Assembly: GCA_964438605.1 (NCBI GenBank)
Contig: CAYTKT010000005.1
Coordinates: 2,395 to 66,394 of the forward strand
Direction: 5' to 3'
Length of the DNA stretch: 64,000 nt
DNA from: an uncultured Oscillospiraceae bacterium
GTDB lineage: Bacteria > Bacillota > Clostridia > Peptostreptococcales > Anaerovoracaceae
Positions 23,039 to 57,135 of the stretch are shown here, one piece after another; the stretch's first letter is position 1; every line of letters starts with the position of its first letter. The notes below the pieces were generated by a model, which was not told where the DNA came from, searched no databases, and was given only the letters and a program-made list of their open reading frames with translations. The translations under genes were made by a program, and so were the position numbers.

Positions 23039-23195
23039 CTTCCCTCTGCCCGACGATCCTGCTTTCACGGCACATCTGCCCGACAATCCCGCTTGTACCC
23101 GGCACATCTGTCGGACAATCCCGTTTGTACCCGGAACATCTGCCTGACAGTTCCGCTTATATCCGCCATATTTGCCCGCCGATTTCGTTTCCGGC
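23039..23195. repeat. about 5 x 32-bp degenerate tandem repeat (intergenic)
   Basis: Units CACATCTGCCCGACAATCCCGCTTGTACCCGG / CACATCTGTCGGACAATCCCGTTTGTACCCGG / AACATCTGCCTGACAGTTCCGCTTATATCCGC, and so on. They are contiguous, with no spacers. Confidence 0.75.
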
Positions 23196-29023: not shown

Positions 29024-30255
29024 ATCACCTCGCTTCCCATGAACACAGGGCCGTCCTTACAGACTTTCCGGCGGACTATGAATTCGCCGTTTTCAACGAA
29101 TACAGGCGCCGGTTCGTGCTCATAATCTGCAAAAATTTTTTTTCCGTCCCCATCGGAAAGTTCGGACGCATCTGCTTCAGCGGACGATTCCAAAACGGCC
29201 CTGATTTTACAGACACAACCGACGCAGGCGCCATAACCGCAACCCATGCGTTCTTCCAGAGAAACCTGGATATCGCCGCCCAGCTTTTGCACATATGTAT
29301 TGACAGCTTTGAGCATCGGACGCGGCCCGCACGCAAAATAGAAGTTGCCCCGGACATCACTGGCTTCCAGACCGTCGATAACCGTACCGAGAAAGGCGTC
29401 GACAGTCGGAAGTTCTGTCGTAATAATGACGCGGGCGCCCAGAGCTTTCAGGTCGTCAGTCAAAAACGGCTCCTTGCGAAAACCCGCCACGACGGTGCAA
29501 CGAACTCCCAGTTTTAGCAATTCCTTCGCCAAAAAATACATCGGTGCCGCACCGACGCCGCCGCCGATTAAAACCGCATGAAGCGGTGTTTTAGCACCGG
29601 AAATCAGAGCCGCCGTTTTTGTTTGCTCTGCGGCGGCGGATTTGTGGGCCGCGCTTTCGGTTTCCGGCGCGGCATTTGACGCGAAATCCGCTGTTTTTGT
29701 TTGCTCCATGGTTGCGGATTTATGGGCCGCGCTCTGGGTTTCCGGTGCGGCACTCGACGTAAAAGCTGCTATTTTAGTTTGCTCTGTGGCCGTGGATTTG
29801 CGGACTGCGCTTTCGGTTTCCGATGTTATATTCGATGCAAAAGCCGCTATTTTAGTTTGCTCTGTGGCTGTGGGTTTGCAGATCGCGCTTTCGGTTTCCG
29901 GCACGGCCATCGGGTCCGCAGTTCCCTGCGCGCCCTGCGGGCGCGGCAGAGTAAACCCGTTGCCCAGCGGCGACGACACGCGCACGAGGTCGCCGCTCCT
30001 GCAAGCTGCAAACTCTGCCGTGCCCGCGCCGACGACGGCATACACAAAAGTTACCGTGCCGTCGTCGGGGTCAGCATCGCAGATGCTGACCGGGCGCGGC
30101 AGGATCAACCTGTCGGCGGCCGGATACAGATTCGCAAACTGACCCGGGCGCGCAGCGCCCGCAACTCCGGGCGCCGACAGCGTCATCTTCATAATCCCGT
30201 CTGCAATCTGCTGGTTACTGACGACCTTAGCCTCATAAATCTTTTTTTCAGGCAT
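29014..30255 (-). CDS. pyrK: dihydroorotate dehydrogenase B electron-transfer subunit with about 115-aa repeat insertion
   Basis: FAD-binding barrel (RPVSICD), NAD domain (LIGGGVGAAPMYF) and a C-terminal 2Fe-2S motif (CGYGACVGCVC). 413 aa compared with a typical ~250. Confidence 0.85.
   Translation of the reverse strand: MPEKKIYEAKVVSNQQIADGIMKMTLSAPGVAGAARPGQFANLYPAADRLILPRPVSICDADPDDGTVTFVYAVVGAGTAEFAACRSGDLVRVSSPLGNGFTLPRPQGAQGTADPMAVPETESAICKPTATEQTKIAAFASNITSETESAVRKSTATEQTKIAAFTSSAAPETQSAAHKSATMEQTKTADFASNAAPETESAAHKSAAAEQTKTAALISGAKTPLHAVLIGGGVGAAPMYFLAKELLKLGVRCTVVAGFRKEPFLTDDLKALGARVIITTELPTVDAFLGTVIDGLEASDVRGNFYFACGPRPMLKAVNTYVQKLGGDIQVSLEERMGCGYGACVGCVCKIRAVLESSAEADASELSDGDGKKIFADYEHEPAPVFVENGEFIVRRKVCKDGPVFMGSEVIWE
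29587..29898. repeat. 4 x 78-bp in-frame tandem repeat inside pyrK
   Basis: Encodes ETESAICKPTATEQTKIAAFASNITS / ETESAVRKSTATEQTKIAAFTSSAAP / ETQSAAHKSATMEQTKTADFASNAAP / ETESAAHKSAAAEQTKTAALISGAKT. Confidence 0.9.
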
Positions 30256-34770: not shown

Positions 34771-37700
34771 TTACTTCACCATGAGACGGATCATCCGCTG
34801 CATGATAGTCGCGACTTCCGCTCTCGTAGCGCTGCCGTCCGGATTGAGCAAACCGGTATCGCTGCCCTCAAGAAGTCCTGCGCCGACCGCCCATGTCATA
34901 GCGTCGGCGGCGTAACCGGAAATGGCCCCGCTGTCAGAAAACCTGCCAAGGTTGCCTTTTGCCGTCATATCCATGTTCATCACTCCGGCGTAACGCCAGA
35001 GCATCGTCGCCAGCTGCTCTCTCGTGATGTTGTCATTCGGGCCGAAAGCGCCGCCGCCATATCCTGTCACGATACCGTGTTCATTGGCCCAGGCGATGCC
35101 TTCCGTGTACCAGCTGCCGTTTGCGACGTCGCTGAACATATCGGTGGCCGTGGCGGATTCTTCGTCTTCCAGCCGCCAGAGAACCGTACTCAGCATCCCT
35201 CTCGTCATCGCTTCCTTCGGAGCGAATGTCTTGTCAGCCACGCCCTGGAACAGGTCATGAGAACTTGCAAAGTCGACTGCGCCGGCAAACCAGTTGGAAC
35301 CCGCCACGTCGTCGAACGCTTTGCGGTTATCTTTGACTTTCACGCTGCAGGAACCGTCTAACAGCGCATCAATGTAACCCGCGTCTACGACAGATTTTTT
35401 CACAACCGTCTCCGTACCGTCCGGTTCGACGATTACCAGGACATTTCCGTCTCCGACGACTGGCAGTTTCGCCTTGAGGCCGCCCTTGAGAGAATCAATC
35501 TTATTTCCGTCAACGGCGACTTCGATGCCGGTAGTGCCGTCTTCTTTCTTTTCGACAGAGACGCTGACTTTGCCGCCGTCGGAAGTGTTGAGTTCTTCCA
35601 GCGAAGCAGTCGGCAATGTGACATCAGCCGCATCTGTCTCGACTGTAAGATTCAGGCCCGCGTCCGCGATGTCGCCCATGCTCGATTTCGGCAGTTCCAC
35701 AGTCATTTTGTCCGCGCCGTCCTTTGCTTCGGGCGCCACGGTCAGATTTTCAGAATTTGCGCTCTTTGCGGCTTCAATACCCGAAGTCACAGTATCTTCC
35801 GTAATCTCGGCTTTCGCCTCGTTTCCGCTCACCGTGGTCTCCGGCGTCAGGAGCGGTTCTTCCGGTTTCGGGCTCGGCTGTGGTTCCGGCTCAGGCTCCG
35901 GTTTAGCTGCAGATCCGCCGCCGGAACCGCCGCCACCGGAACTACTGCCGCCGCTGGAAGGACGATTGGAAACTGTGACGGTAATCGTACGGGTAATCGT
36001 GATTTTTTCACCGCTATGATTTCCGCTGTCCGGGTGGTCATAGACTGCCGTGACCGTGGCCCTTGCTGTGCCCACCTTGAGACCTGTTATTTTTGCGCCG
36101 TCCACTTTTGCGATTTCGGCGTTATCGACGGTAACTTTTGCATTTTTGTCAGATGAGATTGTCACACTTTCATTCACATACACATCGACATCAGCAATCT
36201 CACTTCCAACTTCCGCAGGGTATGAAACAGTCTGAGCTTTCTTTTTCTCACCCTGGAGTTGGACGGTAATCCGGCCTGCCTCACGTGTCAGCGCATTCTC
36301 ATCCAGTTCAACGATCAGCGAACTTTTTATATCCGCATCGCCGATGGTAACAGGAGCGCTGACAGGCGAACCATTTCGATAAAAGCCAACGGTATCGCCC
36401 TCTTTCAGTTCGCTGCCATTCAGAGCAAGAACCGCATAATCGGCATAACCTTCCGGCAGATTGTAGATTGTTGCAGGAATTTCACGGTCATCTGTTTTCA
36501 GATTCACGACACTTGATTTGTGCAGAATATCATAATTCTGATCGTTCGGCGTGTCGTTCGGCGTGAATGTCCACGCATAACTTTCCCCGTCCTTCGTAAT
36601 CACAGTATCGGGTTCATACCAGTGAAACGTTCCTGTCACGGTTTCATTTTTTACACCGCTCATGCTCGTAGGACCGGAAATGGTTCCCAAAACTTGTCCT
36701 TCATAACCATTAAAGACCGGCTCGGTTCCATAATTTTTCACCTTCTCAACGACTGCTTTGATGTCCACGGAATTATCGGCGTATGTATCGGATTCGTCCC
36801 CGGCGTAAGCGGTGATCCTCACTTTATAAATCCCCGCATTTTTCGGCAGACCGACCACCCATGCTTCCGATTCGATTGGAGCGTATTCTATTTTTGTTTC
36901 AAATCCGATTTCGCCGTTTTCTCCGACCTTTAAGCCCAAATCAATTTTGTCACCCGTGTATTCCTTATTATAGTCTGATACGTCAATTGGAACGGGCTTT
37001 TTTTTCATGACCCGAACTGTCACCGTTCTACTGTCTTCCGCCGGATCATCCGGTTTGTTGTAGTTCTTTGTGTCCGTTAATTCGAACTCCCAATGGCATA
37101 CTTCATCTTTAAAATCATCTTCGAAATCTTCAAATTCATCGTCTTCTGTTAAACTAAACGTCCCATCCACCACCATCTCCTCTTTATACGGATTGACGTA
37201 GAGGCCGTGGACTTTGACATCCGTTTTCTGTTCGTTCACATAGCCGCACTCTGCTGTAACTTCGCCTTTGAGAACCGGCGTCGCTTTTTCCACTTTTAAG
37301 GCATTTTCGATCTTGTCATTTGTAGCTGTGTAGTTTCCTCCGGTTATTTCAATTTCTACATCGTACCCATCGTCGTCGACCTTTGCGTCATAAGCGGCGC
37401 CTTCTGACATGAACTCGGCATTAACCACTTCGGCAAATTTCTCGCCATTTATCATACCGTCCGCGTCGAAAGCCGAGATATTGAAAACTGCCTCCTGCCC
37501 ATACTCTTTTGTAAGTTCCGTTTCATCTTTAACCTTAACCGTAACCTCTTTCGGATTTATCACGCCTTCCGCATGAACCGCCGACTTGGACGACAATACG
37601 TAGTTATTCACATCTTTGCCAGTCAGGTTTCCCGGAGTAATTTTTACTTCTTGTGTTCCCACGTCGACATTTTCATAGACACCTTCAGAACCACTGATCA

Positions 37701-39714
37701 AAACCTGGTCATTTCCCACGATATTGCCCAAATAAAGTCCCTCATCCGCATTTTCCAAGGTATATTTACCGTCATATGGTTTTTCCTCGATCTGTTTGCC
37801 GGAAACATAGACCTTCCTTTTCGCAACTTCCATGTTTATCTCCAACACACCATCGGCATAAGTGTCATCGCCCGCAATCGTCGCTTTTACTTTATACTGA
37901 CCGGCTTTCACCGGAGGTTTCGTGACCCACTTGTCTCCGCTTCCATCGACCAGACTGTATTCCACTTTAATAGTTCCGTTGCGGCCAGCCGTAAACGAAA
38001 GACTGTGAGCTTTTCCATCGTAAATAGGCCTCGTTTTGTTGTTAGGATTTTCTTTGATTACGGTCGGCGTTTTATTCGTAACTTGAATACTTGCGCTTCC
38101 TTTAACTGTTTCATAATTTTCTGTATCTTCCGGGGTAAAGGTCCATCCTTTACTTACAGTGTCTTCTTTATCCGACACGACCGGATCATGTGTATCAATT
38201 CCCTCCCATTTTAATTCACCAGGAACATCTAAAGCATGATTGGCTCCATTGGCAAATGTGCCGCTGAGTTTCGATTTACTCAGATTCTCACCGACTTTCA
38301 CCCCGGTCGCCGTCACCGTACCAACCGGCTTCGCCTTGCTTACCTCGACCTTTGGAGCCGTGCCTGTTTTCCATTCCACTTTATAGTTTCCGTTAGAACC
38401 GGCAATTTCAATCGGGTACTCGCCGCTCGCTTTCGCGCCCTGAGAAAATCCATCGCTGGTAAATGTCAAATTCGTAAGGCTGTTTTTGATTTTGTCACCC
38501 GAATCTCCCTCGACGCTCCATTTTACATCCTCCGGTCCTTTTGTTTCCCCGTAGGTTTTTTCAATATTGCTCGCATTGATTTGAATCGTTTTCGGTGTTA
38601 CTTTTACCGCAAAGGTATAGGTAGCAATCCCGGAAGCGATACGGAAATGAACCGAAGCGGAATGTGTTTGGTTAGCCTCCAGATTCTGGTTAAACTTCAG
38701 AGTATAGCCGACATATCCATCCTTCGGAATATTGTATCCATTGGTCTCATCACCTGTTACTGTTTCAGGTTTTTCGTTACTTTTTTTAAGAGTAAAAACA
38801 TTTGTCGTAAAATCAGGACAGCCGACGTTCTTGAGTTCCGTATTGCCGGTATTTTTCAACTGGAATTCATATTCCTGTACACTGGTTTTTCCATATTCTA
38901 CAGATTGTTCCAGCGTAAACGTCTTCGAAAAAGGGCCGTCTTTATCTCCCGTGTCGAAACTGGATTTGTCCTCCGCAGGCACTAATTCAGCCTTGACGAC
39001 CGGACGGGTGCCGTACACCGGATAAAGATCAACAGTGTTATTGTCTCCATCGTCCGGAAGTTTATCCAATGCCTTGTAATTATTATTTTCCTTATCAGTA
39101 TTCCAACCGATAAATTCCTTGTTTCCGTCCGTTTTGTCATTCAACTTTGGAAGAAGCAGACTGCCGGTCAACGTTCCTGCCGTTCCGAAGATAGAAAGAA
39201 CTTTATCCTCCCCCTCCTTCGGCTCAAACTCATCACCTGTATAAAGGCTCTCCTCCGAAACCGTATCCCCGTTTCCTATATGGAATTTGTACTCGATCAG
39301 AGTAATCGTCTTTTCACAGGAATCATCATCCTTGGAAACGGTTGCTGTATAGTCGCCTGGCTTGTTAAGTTCTTCCGCCTGCCAGTAATACTGAGAACCG
39401 GTGGAATTCATTCCTTCTTGCTGAACATTGTCATCTGTCAGCCCACTTTCTGGAATGGTTTTAGAATAAAAGGATTTTTCCTCTTCCGGCCCTTTGACTT
39501 CCACCTTGTATCCATTGAGCGACTTGCCACCCTTCATCGTCACGTACATGATATTTCTCGTTTCATCCTCCACATCACGAAACGGCGCATTGTTCGCCTT
39601 AAAGGCAAAATCAATCTCTCCCCCTGAAGATGCTGCCGCATACACCGGCGACATCGGAATCATGGTCAGCGCCATGGCCATCATCAAGAGGATAGACAAA
39701 AGTTTTTTCCTCAT
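34771..39714 (-). CDS. giant cell-surface protein: signal peptide, multiple Ig-like/MBG(YDG)-type repeats, Big_2-like domain, Gly/Ser-Pro/Glu linker, three C-terminal SLH domains
   Basis: 1647 aa. Signal peptide MRKKLLSILLMMAMALTMIPMSPVYAAA. Three SLH repeats (FDDVAGSNWFAGAVDF..., FSDVANGSWYTEGIAW..., FSDSGAISGYAADAMTW...). RBS GGAAAGGAG. Confidence 0.9.
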   Translation of the reverse strand: MRKKLLSILLMMAMALTMIPMSPVYAAASSGGEIDFAFKANNAPFRDVEDETRNIMYVTMKGGKSLNGYKVEVKGPEEEKSFYSKTIPESGLTDDNVQQEGMNSTGSQYYWQAEELNKPGDYTATVSKDDDSCEKTITLIEYKFHIGNGDTVSEESLYTGDEFEPKEGEDKVLSIFGTAGTLTGSLLLPKLNDKTDGNKEFIGWNTDKENNNYKALDKLPDDGDNNTVDLYPVYGTRPVVKAELVPAEDKSSFDTGDKDGPFSKTFTLEQSVEYGKTSVQEYEFQLKNTGNTELKNVGCPDFTTNVFTLKKSNEKPETVTGDETNGYNIPKDGYVGYTLKFNQNLEANQTHSASVHFRIASGIATYTFAVKVTPKTIQINASNIEKTYGETKGPEDVKWSVEGDSGDKIKNSLTNLTFTSDGFSQGAKASGEYPIEIAGSNGNYKVEWKTGTAPKVEVSKAKPVGTVTATGVKVGENLSKSKLSGTFANGANHALDVPGELKWEGIDTHDPVVSDKEDTVSKGWTFTPEDTENYETVKGSASIQVTNKTPTVIKENPNNKTRPIYDGKAHSLSFTAGRNGTIKVEYSLVDGSGDKWVTKPPVKAGQYKVKATIAGDDTYADGVLEINMEVAKRKVYVSGKQIEEKPYDGKYTLENADEGLYLGNIVGNDQVLISGSEGVYENVDVGTQEVKITPGNLTGKDVNNYVLSSKSAVHAEGVINPKEVTVKVKDETELTKEYGQEAVFNISAFDADGMINGEKFAEVVNAEFMSEGAAYDAKVDDDGYDVEIEITGGNYTATNDKIENALKVEKATPVLKGEVTAECGYVNEQKTDVKVHGLYVNPYKEEMVVDGTFSLTEDDEFEDFEDDFKDEVCHWEFELTDTKNYNKPDDPAEDSRTVTVRVMKKKPVPIDVSDYNKEYTGDKIDLGLKVGENGEIGFETKIEYAPIESEAWVVGLPKNAGIYKVRITAYAGDESDTYADNSVDIKAVVEKVKNYGTEPVFNGYEGQVLGTISGPTSMSGVKNETVTGTFHWYEPDTVITKDGESYAWTFTPNDTPNDQNYDILHKSSVVNLKTDDREIPATIYNLPEGYADYAVLALNGSELKEGDTVGFYRNGSPVSAPVTIGDADIKSSLIVELDENALTREAGRITVQLQGEKKKAQTVSYPAEVGSEIADVDVYVNESVTISSDKNAKVTVDNAEIAKVDGAKITGLKVGTARATVTAVYDHPDSGNHSGEKITITRTITVTVSNRPSSGGSSSGGGGSGGGSAAKPEPEPEPQPSPKPEEPLLTPETTVSGNEAKAEITEDTVTSGIEAAKSANSENLTVAPEAKDGADKMTVELPKSSMGDIADAGLNLTVETDAADVTLPTASLEELNTSDGGKVSVSVEKKEDGTTGIEVAVDGNKIDSLKGGLKAKLPVVGDGNVLVIVEPDGTETVVKKSVVDAGYIDALLDGSCSVKVKDNRKAFDDVAGSNWFAGAVDFASSHDLFQGVADKTFAPKEAMTRGMLSTVLWRLEDEESATATDMFSDVANGSWYTEGIAWANEHGIVTGYGGGAFGPNDNITREQLATMLWRYAGVMNMDMTAKGNLGRFSDSGAISGYAADAMTWAVGAGLLEGSDTGLLNPDGSATRAEVATIMQRMIRLMVK

Positions 39715-39805
39715 AAGAATCTCCTTTCCTCACTATATAACTTATAACCCATCTCCCTCAAATACCTTAAGAGCGACATAGATTAGGAAACAATATTTTT
39801 TTGTT

Positions 39806-39836
39806 ATTTTACCACCCCCCCCCCCTAGAAAATCAA
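39806..39836 (-). promoter_or_regulatory. promoter-like element with G11 tract in the spacer
   Basis: The minus strand reads TTGATT-TTCTA-GGGGGGGGGGG-TGG-TAAAAT. That is a -35-like hexamer, a 19-nt spacer, and an extended -10 (TGnTAAAAT). It lies about 92 nt upstream of the SLH gene ATG. Confidence 0.45.
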
Positions 39837-40148
39837 CGCCTTCCCGGCCTCTTCATCCCTTATTCTCAGCCATTTTGATTCGCTTCCTAGCTCATTTGTC
39901 CCTATTTTTCTACGTTAAATTCATACCTCTTTTTAACGTTTTCAAAAAACTCTTGGCAAAACGCCTTTCCCATGCAGCCCACCCCGTATGCGCAGAATAG
40001 TCCCTTCTGTCACGGACCGGTTCGCCATGCCAAAGCGCCGTATTCGCATCTTTATCGTGTAAAATTTCGTACAATATTAACGCCATTTAAAATGAAAACA
40101 CATTGAAATCAATATATTTTTACGCCTTGAAAAAAATTTTTTAAAAAA

Positions 40149-40175
40149 TTAGCACTCTCATGTTTAGAGTGCTAA
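40149..40175 (+). promoter_or_regulatory. CIRCE operator (HrcA binding site)
   Basis: TTAGCACTC-TCATGTTTA-GAGTGCTAA is a perfect match to TTAGCACTC-N9-GAGTGCTAA. Confidence 0.85.
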
Positions 40176-40449
40176 TCGATTGGTTATATATATGGTGTAA
40201 GAAAAAGAACTCAAAAAGAGTTCTCCAAACTCTCCTTTCGACGCGCGGGGAAGGAGGGCATGAAAATTAAAAAATAAAAACAACACGAAAGGACTGCACA
40301 GGTAAAGATTTCACTTAAACCGAAAAAACTACTTCCATGCAACTTATTCAATGTGCAGAAATACGGGCAGACTACAAATCAACCTGCATAAAACGTTCTC
40401 CTTTCGGAAATAACAATATCACAGACTAAAAATAAGAAGGAGGTACATT

Positions 40450-40893
40450 ATGTTATCTTTAACACCGAGAGCTAATTTAGGATTGACTGGTTTTGACTTT
40501 TTCGACGATATGTTTTCTCATCCGTTTTTCAGAAATACGGGCCGCGATATGCAGATACCTTCGATGAAAACAGATATTCAGGAAAAAGACGGCATGTATC
40601 TGCTGGATATGGACCTTCCCGGTTATGAGAAGGAAAATATCAAGGTCGAGTTAAACAACGGCTATCTTACGATTTCCGCCAGCAGAAATTCCAGCACTGA
40701 CGAATCCAACGATGAGACAGGTTTCGTATACCGGGAAAGAAGCACCGGTGAATGTAGACGCAGCTTCTATGTCGGCGATTCTATCCGCGAGGAGGATATT
40801 AAGGCCGCTTACAACAACGGCACCCTGTCTGTAACATTCCCGAAAGAAGCGCCGCAGCAGATTGACGAAAAGAAATATATCGCCATCGAGTAA
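40450..40893 (+). CDS. Hsp20/alpha-crystallin family small heat-shock protein
   Basis: 147 aa with an alpha-crystallin domain (DIQEKDGMYLLDMDLPGYEKENIKVEL..., AYNNGTLSVTFPK). RBS AAGGAGG. Confidence 0.9.
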   Translation: MLSLTPRANLGLTGFDFFDDMFSHPFFRNTGRDMQIPSMKTDIQEKDGMYLLDMDLPGYEKENIKVELNNGYLTISASRNSSTDESNDETGFVYRERSTGECRRSFYVGDSIREEDIKAAYNNGTLSVTFPKEAPQQIDEKKYIAIE

Positions 40894-43318: not shown

Positions 43319-43483
43319 ATTGGAAAACGTCGGCAGGAAGTCGACGGAAAGATTCAGAAGAATTTTTTAAAGATTACGGATGACATATCTGAAAATCTCT
43401 GTCCACTCCGCACCGTCGCTCGCGATTTGCGCCTGGATCATCCGGAACATGCTGCGATCCGGATTCTAAAGATATCCGACTTT

Positions 43484-43999
43484 GGCGATACCTGCGCCAG
43501 CTGCATTTACACCGATGGCGCGTGCTTCGTCTTTTTTGGATTTGAAAGATGCACTGGCCGTGGCGATACCTGCGTCGGCTGCATTCACACCGATGGCATG
43601 TGCTTCGTCTTTTCCGGACTTGAAAGACGCACCAACTGTGGCGATACTTACATCGGCTGCATTTACGCCGATGTCGCGTATTTCGTCTTTTTCGGATTTG
43701 AAAGATGCACCAGCTATGGCGATACCTGTGTCAGCTACATTTACGCCGATGGCGTGTACTTCGTCTTTCCCGGATTTAAAAAGACGCGCCAGCCATGGCA
43801 ATACCTGTGTCAGCTGCATTTACGCCGATGGCATATGCTTCGTCTTTTCCGGACTTGAAAGACGCACCAGCTCTGGTGATACTTACATCGGCTGCATTTT
43901 TACACCGATGTCGCGTATTTCGCCTTTTCCGGATTTAAAAGATACACCAGCCGTGGAGATATCTGCGTCGATTGTATTTACGTTGGTGGTGTGAGCCGG
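43484..43999. repeat. 6.5 x 78-bp tandem repeat array
   Basis: Units begin with GGCGATACCTGCG...; unit lengths are 78, 78, 78, 79, 78 and 80, then a partial unit. A partial degenerate unit also sits just upstream, at about 43461. Confidence 0.9.
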
Positions 44000-54432: not shown

Positions 54433-54486
54433 CCTTTTCCTCCTGTAAGCTGCCTGCGCTGCATTATCTTATTTTCTATTTCCCTG

Positions 54487-54765
54487 AAAGTGGCCTTTCG
54501 CCGCTGCCTCATACTTTGTCTATTTTTTTGGCAGGCGGCTCGCGCCGTTGCCCGCGCATTTTCTCTATTTATCCGCATTATCCTCAGTTCTTCTGCATCG
54601 CGTTTTCACATTTTTTTATTTCTCTGCAGGCGGCTTTTCGCCGCCGCTTCGTGCTTTTCCTATTTTTCCGCAGGCGGCTCGCACCGTTGCCCGCGCATTT
54701 TCTCTATTTATCCGCATTATCCTCAGTTCCTCTGCATCGCGTTTTCACATTTTCTCATTTCCCCG
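54487..54765. repeat. 2 x 139-bp tandem duplication (intergenic)
   Basis: GCAGGCGGCTCGCRCCGTTGCCCGCGCATTTTCTCTATTTATCCGCATTATCCTCAGTTCYTCTGCATCGCGTTTTCACATTTT occurs at 54531 and again at 54670, about 95% identical. The flanking sub-unit is also duplicated. Confidence 0.85.
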
Positions 54766-54799
54766 CGGGCCGCCTCTCACCATCGTCACGCACTTTTCA

Positions 54800-55981
54800 T
54801 CATTTTAAAATTTTTCCAAGAAACGAAATCCCGTTTTCCGGCATTCCGACGCCGAGATAATCGCAGACAGACGCTCCCACATCAGCAAAAGAGTTCAAAA
54901 CACCGAGATCAACCTGCCTGGCCACCTTTTCGCCGTACACGAGCAGCGGCACATATTCACGCGTGTGATTCCACCCGGAATGAACAGGATCGTTCCCGTG
55001 GTCGGCGCAGATGATCAGCAAGTCGTCATATCTCATCCTGTCGAGGACAGCCGGCAGCATGGCATCAAATTCCTCAAGCGCCGTAGCATATCCCGCCGGA
55101 TCCCTCCTGTGGCCATACATCGAATCAAAATCGATCAGATTCGTAAATATCAGTCCGTCTTCACACGACGCCATATATTCCGCAGTCCGGTACATTCCAT
55201 CGGCATTCCCGTTCGTAAAAACAGACGAGGTAATTCCCTTCCCGTTAAAAATGTCCTTGATCTTTCCAACGGCACAGACTTCCTGTCCCGCTGCGCTGAT
55301 CCGGTCCAGAATCGTATCGGCGTAAGGATCGAACGTATAATCATGACGGCCGCTGATCCTCGTATAAACGCCGTTTCGCTCGACAAAAGGCCGTGCGATA
55401 ACGCGCCCCACAAGCCATTCGCCCACCAGCAGCTTCCGAGCAATTTCGCAGTATTCATAAAGCTGTTCCATCGGAATGACTTCCACATTTGCTGCAATCT
55501 GAAAAACGCTGTCCGCCGATGTGTAAACAATCGGAAATCCGGTAGAACGGTGTTCATCGCCTAAAGCCTTAATAATTTCCGTGCCCGACGCCGAATAATT
55601 TCCGAGAACCTGACGGCCGATAGCAGCTTCAAACGCCGTGATGAACTCCTTCGGAAACCCCGTGTCAGTAAACGTTCTGAATGGTTCATCCATCAGAAGT
55701 CCACAAATCTCCCAGTGTCCCGTAATCGTGTCCTTGCCCTCGGAGCGCTCCGCCATTTTTCCAAATGCGCCGCGCACCCTGCCGCCGTAAGACGGCAGAC
55801 CGCTTCCGGGAATGGAAGACAATCCAAGAGACGACAGATTTGGAAGTCTGATCCCTGGATTCCTCTCAACAACATGGCCAATCGTGTTTGCCCCTGCATC
55901 GCCATAAAGCTGCGCGTCAGGCAGTGCACCGATGCCAACGCTGTCCATTACGATCAGTATCACTCTGTTTTTTTCATTCAT
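54800..55981 (-). CDS. deoB: phosphopentomutase
   Basis: 393 aa with the DeoB pattern: VILIVMDSVGIG, GHWE, ADHGNDP. Confidence 0.9.
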   Translation of the reverse strand: MNEKNRVILIVMDSVGIGALPDAQLYGDAGANTIGHVVERNPGIRLPNLSSLGLSSIPGSGLPSYGGRVRGAFGKMAERSEGKDTITGHWEICGLLMDEPFRTFTDTGFPKEFITAFEAAIGRQVLGNYSASGTEIIKALGDEHRSTGFPIVYTSADSVFQIAANVEVIPMEQLYEYCEIARKLLVGEWLVGRVIARPFVERNGVYTRISGRHDYTFDPYADTILDRISAAGQEVCAVGKIKDIFNGKGITSSVFTNGNADGMYRTAEYMASCEDGLIFTNLIDFDSMYGHRRDPAGYATALEEFDAMLPAVLDRMRYDDLLIICADHGNDPVHSGWNHTREYVPLLVYGEKVARQVDLGVLNSFADVGASVCDYLGVGMPENGISFLGKILK

Positions 55982-56885: not shown

Positions 56886-57135
56886 GCACCAGTTGCACAA
56901 AAACATCTCGCCTTGCAAACACAGCCGCACCGACTGCGCAAATATGTCTCATCCCGCAAACACACATGCGCCGACTGTTCCGTCACATCTCATCTCGCAA
57001 ACGCACTCGCACCGACTGTTCCGTCACATCTCATTTCGCAAACGTACCCGCACCGACTGTTCTGTCACATCTCATCTCGCAAACGCACCCGCACCAGTTT
57101 TGCAGTCACATTTCATCTCACAAAAACAGCCATGC
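56886..57135. repeat. about 6 x 41-bp degenerate tandem repeat (intergenic)
   Basis: Unit GTCACATCTCATCTCGCAAACGCACYCGCACCGACTGTTCC, with an exact 41-bp phase at 56982, 57023, 57064 and 57105. Confidence 0.8.

Follow-up and report, generated by a model that had tools for sequence, protein, structure and literature searches.

Upstream of a gene encoding a surface protein of 1647 aa, the window (the whole stretch of 64,000 nucleotides that was analysed, from an uncultured Oscillospiraceae bacterium) carries an uninterrupted run of eleven G residues between two hexamers that resemble those of a sigma-A-type promoter. This locus raises the question of whether the run is a static piece of DNA or a part of the promoter that changes in length and thereby sets the level of the protein. 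We consider it likely that G11 is a hypermutable spacer tract in a sigma-A-type promoter and that slippage in it tunes the expression of the giant SLH protein. The features on which this reading is built are as follows.

39815..39825, minus strand: G11 homopolymer (C11 on the plus strand), the presumed hypermutable part of the spacer and the sole G/C run of six or more in the 64-kb window.
39831..39836, minus strand: -35-like hexamer TTGATT, with 4 of 6 matches to TTGACA, part of the top-scoring sigma-A-type candidate.
39812..39830, minus strand: promoter spacer TTCTA-G11-TGG, which is 19 nt long in the window and shortens to 17 nt in the allele with G9.
39806..39814, minus strand: extended -10 TGG-TAAAAT (form TGnTAnnnT), located downstream of the tract and so untouched by its length.
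39715..39799, minus strand: predicted 5' UTR of about 85 nt, including the RBS AGGAAAGGAG at 39721-39730.
39732..39761, minus strand: alternative promoter-like site TTGAGG-18-TATAGT, a rival, with 18 nt between the end of its -10 and the ATG.
34771..39714, minus strand: gene for the 1647-aa surface protein, with a signal-peptide-like N-terminus (MRKKLLSILLMMAMALTMIPMSPVYAAAS), YDG, and SLH.

Read on the minus strand from 39836 to 39806, the sequence consists of TTGATT (39836-39831), TTCTA, G11, TGG, and TAAAAT (39811-39806), and 92 nt separate the 3' end of the -10 hexamer from the ATG (39714) of the 1647-aa ORF. The original prediction had described a G11 run in a -35/-10 spacer of 19 nt with an extended -10, about 92 nt from the ATG, and its coordinates and descriptions proved correct on a renewed reading of the minus strand. 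Judged from the position of the -10 hexamer, transcription would start at approximately 39797-39800.

The sequence of the 1647-aa protein points to exposure on the cell surface: in addition to the signal-peptide-like N-terminus, it has a YDG domain (aa 632-711) and, at the C-terminus, three SLH stretches, the best of which spans aa 1527-1569 (nt 35008-35136). An intergenic region of 735 nt is common to its gene and the divergent hsp20 gene (40450..40893, plus strand). A perfect CIRCE operator, TTAGCACTC-N9-GAGTGCTAA, is located at 40148-40176, about 275 nt upstream of hsp20, and the operator and the A/T-rich stretch preceding it are conserved in the nearest relative (L009:67-93). Since CIRCE lies upstream of hsp20, the distal half of the region was assigned to the regulatory DNA of hsp20 and the proximal half to the tract promoter. 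The hsp20 leader is unusually long and contains further hairpins, for example at 40200-40225. Small upstream ORFs were rejected as genes for want of a Pfam match and a convincing RBS. One of them, of 58 aa (39910..40086, minus strand), is situated between the tract promoter and the regulatory DNA of hsp20, where the GC content is locally raised (0.58), and may be a gene remnant.

To judge whether the tract is more than a product of chance, the runs of G and C in the window were counted. C runs of length 5 occurred 14 times, those of lengths 6-10 did not occur, and a single run of length 11 was found; the G runs on the plus strand had a maximum length of 5. The number of G/C runs of 11 or more expected in the window under a first-order Markov model was about 0.02. 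The tract had been proposed to be the only long G/C homopolymer in a window of about 50% GC, and the counts agree with this, as it is the sole run of six or more at a GC content of 48.2%. In 469 kb of other, unrelated Clostridia loci, G/C runs of 8 or more were absent. With eleven residues, the tract is also within the length range (about 8 nt or more) in which a mononucleotide repeat is regarded as prone to slip. The hexamer pattern TTGAnn-N15-19-TGnTAnnnT was not enriched in the window, with 2 matches vs 2.4 expected, and the pattern alone was rejected as statistical evidence because of this chance frequency. What departs from chance is that an improbable tract coincides with hexamers on either side of it, that it is intergenic, and that its orientation and its distance from the gene suit a promoter. 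Two other compositional characteristics of the window were observed: strand asymmetry was strong over positions 1-64000, with the plus strand containing 28.2% C vs 19.9% G, and A/T runs reached 8-9, whereas G/C runs of 6-10 were wholly absent.

In a candidate scan of the 440 nt upstream of the surface-protein gene, TTGATT-19-TGGTAAAAT was the best sigma-A-like candidate, and the sole other candidate was TTGAGG-18-TATAGT. We infer that the TTGATT/TAAAAT pair is probably the active promoter of the gene for the 1647-aa protein. It is also conceivable, though improbable in our judgement, that the tract varies in length while the hexamers flanking it do not form a working promoter. Transcription would then start at TTGAGG-18-TATAGT (39761..39732), at an alternative-sigma promoter, or further upstream, and the tract would be a part of the 5' UTR or an upstream phasing element that separates an activator site from the promoter. 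The presence of a second promoter-like site is in keeping with this reading, as are the -35 hexamer with only 4 of 6 matches, the occurrence of the pattern at chance frequency in the window, and the example of the Treponema pallidum tprE/G/J/L genes, in which poly-G lies just upstream of the transcription start and not in a clean spacer (PMC7864442). However, because the -10 of the alternative site ends 18 nt before the ATG, a start from the TATAGT site would fall inside the RBS. Moreover, the tracts found in a homologue of the protein and in a survey of metagenome contigs (both described below) are bracketed by near-consensus hexamers at 15-20 nt, and TTGACA is strongly enriched among them; irrelevant flanking hexamers are unlikely, because this enrichment would not be expected in that case. 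The same arrangement of hexamer, tract, and hexamer recurs in the homologue and across the scanned class. Activator phasing of the Bordetella fim type is argued against, weakly, by the 4/6 match of the -35 hexamer flanking the tract.

The length of the tract was compared between samples. Two Logan contigs, each from a different run of a single study, encode the 1647-aa protein without any change in its sequence; in this study (PRJNA721235), faecal metagenomes of wild volcano rabbits were sequenced on HiSeq 4000 with 2x151 reads (PMC8378336). Contig SRR14209496_7362 (18.9 kb) was 100% identical to the window and had the G11 tract. Contig SRR14209493_9748 (L002, 5463 bp) had 0 mismatches and a single 2-nt gap relative to the window, and its tract was G9. 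Elsewhere, contigs L006 and L008 were 100% identical to the window. The tract thus differed, as G9 vs G11, between otherwise identical sequences from two independent assemblies, one of which was of low coverage; the independent observations of the window's tract number only two, since the run behind L001/L006, which provided the G11 data, is probably also the source of the window assembly. The spacer of the G9 allele is exactly 17 nt, the length that the loss of two G residues had been predicted to produce. The original prediction of a candidate phase-variable or rheostat promoter had named invariance of the tract across relatives as evidence to the contrary, and this was not the case, as the same strain had G9 in one sample and G11 in the other. 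The prediction is supported by this difference and by the homologue, the promoter class, and the variability in Faecalibacterium prausnitzii presented below.

The G9 tract could instead be a sequencing or assembly error in the low-coverage sample, the tract itself being real but effectively fixed at G11 as a static spacer. SRR14209493 was of low coverage, its assembly at the locus was broken into contigs of 5.4 kb and 2.8 kb that leave about 1 kb uncovered, and the G9 tract is at the very end of contig L002, within its first 31-mer. In addition, homopolymers in short-read drafts call for caution (PMC4577077), and two strains of the homologous locus had no length difference (both G9). Contig L002 extends for 19 nt beyond the upstream side of the tract and stops there, which fits an assembly-graph branch and equally fits low coverage; the break lies 2 nt off the position expected for a pure G9/G10 branch. 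On the other hand, four-colour HiSeq sequencing is unlikely to yield a 2-nt deletion that is seen at least 2 times and forms the only or prevailing k-mer path, and no other difference was found in 5.4 kb. The dark-cycle poly-G artefact does not apply, because HiSeq 4000 uses four-colour chemistry. A like tract ranges from G7 to G11 in ten Faecalibacterium assemblies, including a complete genome, and G11 could hardly persist as a static tract where no other G/C run exceeds 5. Taken together, we regard a fixed tract as unlikely and favor a tract that varies in length within the strain.

Further sources were searched for the locus. A scan of the metagenome contig collection for the window's exact promoter with variable tract length gave 0 matches. 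The neighbouring proteins of the locus were all singletons in a collection of 15 billion proteins, and none of the GTDB representatives is of the window's species. An uncultured Oscillospiraceae MAG encodes the nearest Hsp20 (78% identity), on a contig that stops before the surface-protein side.

Homologues of the giant protein were then inspected for similar promoters. Only P0002, P0003, and P0071 were clearly similar to the non-SLH part of the 1647-aa protein, and the similarity of P0126 was marginal (E = 4.5e-7). P0002 (L003) is a more distant relative (36% identity over the whole protein, 30% over the non-SLH part); its promoter, TTGCAA-17-TGaTACAAT, is an ordinary one without a tract, and no tract was found upstream of P0036 (L090) or P0071 (L091). 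P0003/P0127 is a 31%-identical homologue from another rabbit-gut bacterium, which has no DNA similarity to the window, and contains YDG and Big_2 domains without SLH. At the P0003 locus (L089:818-845, in an NCBI MAG), the putative promoter is TTGACG-c-G9-tgagag-TATAAT with a 16-nt spacer, located 55 nt upstream of an ATG that is accompanied by a good RBS and a signal peptide. P0127, the full-length 1791-aa version on a Logan contig from SRR14209493 (L092:2419-2446), has the same promoter, again with G9. The two loci are 97.5% identical (about 2.4% divergence), and the tract was kept with the same length in both. The gene call of P0003 in the NCBI MAG is cut short by a 100-N scaffold gap (L089:1280-1379). 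A poly-G run in a predicted promoter spacer therefore recurs upstream of a distant homologous giant surface protein in a different bacterium.

To see how widespread such promoters are, metagenome contigs were scanned with the generic pattern TTGA-N2-9-G9-N0-9-TAnAAT, and at least 120 loci (L093-L212) were obtained, with 107 distinct promoter types among those listed. The pattern specified only TTGA, leaving positions 5 and 6 of the -35 hexamer free; nevertheless, among the matches listed, 40 of the 107 promoter types had the full TTGACA (p = 4e-21 against 1/16). Spacers of 15-20 nt were present in 46 of the 50 TTGACA matches listed, counted before de-duplication. In the raw counts for the TTGACA matches listed, spacer lengths of 15, 16, 17, 18, and 19 nt occurred 8, 12, 4, 11, and 7 times, respectively; the dip at 17 nt may reflect paralogue redundancy.

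The genes downstream of these promoters frequently encode putative secreted or surface proteins. Among the matches listed, signal-peptide-like N-termini were present in 29 of the 52 ORFs with an RBS no more than 160 nt away, vs 16% of the long ORFs at the same loci. The products among the matches listed include a BspA-type LRR/Big_2/fn3 protein (L108), many small lipoproteins without a Pfam match, pilin-like proteins with N-terminal methylation motifs (L152, with Pfam N_methyl, and L195, assigned by eye only), and beta-helix proteins (L173; L193, the N-terminus of which matches that of L173; and L207, which was assigned without a Pfam scan). The protein encoded at L096 (2381 aa) combines a YSIRK-like N-terminus with an LPQTG motif at the C-terminus. 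Some promoter types recurred with different tract lengths: among the matches listed, TTGACA-tgc-Gn-tatgga-TAAAAT was found with G9, G9, G10, G10, and G11, and TTGACA-Gn-tagatg-TAAAAT was found with G9, G10, and G13, the near-identical TTGACA-G12-agatg-TAAAAT being present in L153. Promoter-like sequences similar to that of the window are common in related gut bacteria, including Faecalibacterium. Whether the window's G11 promoter is one instance of a widespread poly-G spacer contingency system, serving surface-protein, lipoprotein, and pilin-like genes in Oscillospirales and other gut Firmicutes, is in our estimation an evenly balanced matter.

The small-lipoprotein family that emerged from the scan belongs to F. 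prausnitzii (loci L213-L232). Its members are about 155-197 aa in length, have no Pfam match, and are partly encoded in tandem. In some of them, a cassette is composed of a terminator, TTGACAtgc-Gn-tatggaTAAAAT, a 5' UTR, and a lipoprotein signal peptide. An identical 174-aa lipoprotein, P0222, is encoded by ten F. prausnitzii assemblies, including the complete genome CP065382.1, and the tracts in these assemblies were G7, G9 (three assemblies), G10 (five assemblies), and G11. Over the 165 nt of the P0222 cassette (terminator, promoter, 5' UTR, and start codon), only 3 SNP columns were found. An example is locus L229 (CP065382.1, 178580-199104), with the tract at L229:9910-9918. The tract length in F. 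prausnitzii is clearly hypervariable. This family, in which the promoter/5' UTR/signal cassette is conserved, the tract varies from G7 to G11, and the mature proteins diverge, may be the clearest case of the proposed class.

Alternatively, the window's tract could be a neutral hotspot of mutation or a structural DNA element, for instance a weak G-quadruplex or A-form DNA, and have no selected role in switching. A run of eleven G residues can in principle form a two-tetrad G-quadruplex. However, in 205 kb of syntenic F. prausnitzii loci, G/C runs of length 5, 6, 7, 9, 10, and 11 occurred 346, 2, 2, 4, 6, and 1 times, respectively, and every run of 9 or more was inside such a promoter spacer. 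Runs of 6-8 are thus nearly absent there, as runs of 6-10 are from the window, and long runs occur only in promoter spacers. The run spectrum is bimodal in both the window and F. prausnitzii, with tracts kept in promoter spacers and otherwise avoided, which argues for selection against tracts generally and for their retention at spacers. The conservation of the tract across 2.4% divergence in the homologue and the association of tract promoters with genes for secreted or surface proteins also speak against a neutral or structural element, which we consider very improbable, more so than either a fixed tract or non-functional hexamers.

In the tunable promoter that we favor, slipped-strand mispairing at replication would add or remove G residues in the tract, and each such change would alter the spacer by 1 nt, so that G11, G10, and G9 would correspond to 19, 18, and 17 nt, respectively. 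The spacer length would affect the contact of the sigma factor with both hexamers and would thus set a heritable and reversible level of transcription, slippage being presumably frequent and reversible. As the TGn extended -10 stays intact at all tract lengths, off-optimal lengths would be expected to reduce, but not abolish, expression, in the manner of a rheostat or contingency locus. As its length differs between samples, the tract probably serves to switch or dim the giant surface protein by mutation; because the -10 is of the extended type, graded dimming is likelier than strict ON/OFF switching. Since an extended -10 promoter depends less on its -35 hexamer, spacer length might have only a modest effect. 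As the product is a wall-anchored giant protein, the benefit is probably escape from antibodies or phages, or variation in adhesion.

Other modes of control were looked for at this locus. No Rfam match was found at E<=1 in 39400-40800, nor at the gathering score in the whole window, and the fold of the 5' UTR of the surface-protein gene was not significant (z = -1.7). A riboswitch or other leader RNA, for example a c-di-GMP riboswitch, was rejected on these two grounds. No substantial pair of inverted repeats brackets 39715-40100, the only perfect inverted repeat being CIRCE at 40148-40176, and an invertible promoter switch of the cwpV or flgB type was rejected, as no flanking inverted repeats were found.

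Phase variation through simple sequence repeats is textbook knowledge for mucosal pathogens of the genera Neisseria, Haemophilus, Campylobacter, Helicobacter, Treponema, and Mycoplasma. The tract of the window most closely recalls those of porA and T. pallidum tp0126, in which poly-G separates -35 from -10 and a spacing of 17 nt is the optimum (PMC3899988; PMC7864442). In porA of Neisseria meningitidis, a Gram-negative pathogen, the spacer of a major surface-protein gene likewise contains a G tract of about 9-11 nt, and transcription changes when a single G is lost or gained, an effect on expression that has been measured (PMC3899988, PMC7864442). Unlike porA, the window has a TGn extended -10, and G11 and G9 correspond to spacers of 19 and 17 nt, respectively. 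The G11 state of porA is reportedly the optimal one, a finding attributed to van der Ende (1995). In T. pallidum, tp0126 shares the poly-G spacer with the window, tracts of 7 to 11 G occur within isolates, and the targets of the tp0126 and tpr poly-G promoters are putative surface proteins (PMC7864442). In that spirochaete pathogen, the start was mapped, reporters were tested, and fragment lengths were analysed.

Within Bacillota, the gene for R28 (Spy1336) of Streptococcus pyogenes M28 offers a further parallel: a homopolymer of 9, 10, or 11 nt in a divergent intergenic region sets three transcript levels of a large wall-anchored surface protein (PMC7098570). It differs from the window in that the tract is composed of T, shifts the spacing between direct repeats, and also affects a divergent regulator gene, so that it is not a clean spacer, and in that the anchor is LPXTG and not SLH. 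In the vlp multigene family of Mycoplasma hyorhinis, the promoter, 5' UTR, and lipoprotein signal are conserved, the spacer contains a homopolymer, and the mature proteins diverge. The vlp genes closely match the Faecalibacterium cassette, and the window's single gene matches them in mechanism, but their tract is poly-A, not poly-G, and their host is a wall-less Mollicute.

Among gut bacteria, the phase variation found in the literature for Clostridia was DNA inversion in Clostridioides difficile. CwpV is a phase-variable protein and the largest cell-wall protein of this Clostridia-class gut bacterium (PMC2784873); it is switched by recombinase-mediated site-specific inversion between inverted repeats, whereas the window has no flanking inverted repeats. 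In Bifidobacterium breve, replication slippage at a G tract turns a pilus surface structure ON or OFF (PMC9187656). This gut commensal likewise uses G-tract slippage for a surface structure but belongs to Actinomycetota. Its pilus G tract is said to lie inside the coding region and to act by frameshift, not in a promoter. In the open-access literature, we found no report linking Faecalibacterium, Clostridia, or Firmicutes with homopolymer promoter phase variation, which does not prove that none exists. The mechanism itself is already known from promoters of the porA and tp0126 type; what is new here is the lineage, uncultured Oscillospiraceae-like Clostridia, and the SLH-anchored protein, for which no report was found.

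If poly-G promoters tune expression in this way, uncultured Oscillospiraceae and F. prausnitzii would vary their surface proteins stochastically, and dominant benign gut commensals would run repeat-based surface repertoires in the style of Neisseria and Mycoplasma, not invertible promoters alone. This would have a bearing on escape from IgA and phages and on strain persistence. The tract length in a MAG consensus would then represent only one state of the population, and contig breaks at such loci would be explained. The most interesting lead is the combination of poly-G spacer promoters in gut Firmicutes with the vlp-like family of F. prausnitzii.

Tandem repeats were also observed in the window. 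At 43483-43981, a 78-nt repeat is present in 6.4 copies with 79% identity and has an additional super-period of 235 nt; both Logan contigs of the window's strain stop at the edge of this repeat (window 43630). TRF detected further tandem repeats at 29608-29901 (78 nt, 3.8 copies), 54472-54806 (139 nt, 2 copies), 56947-57124 (41 nt, 4.3 copies), and 23045-23178 (32 nt, 4.2 copies).
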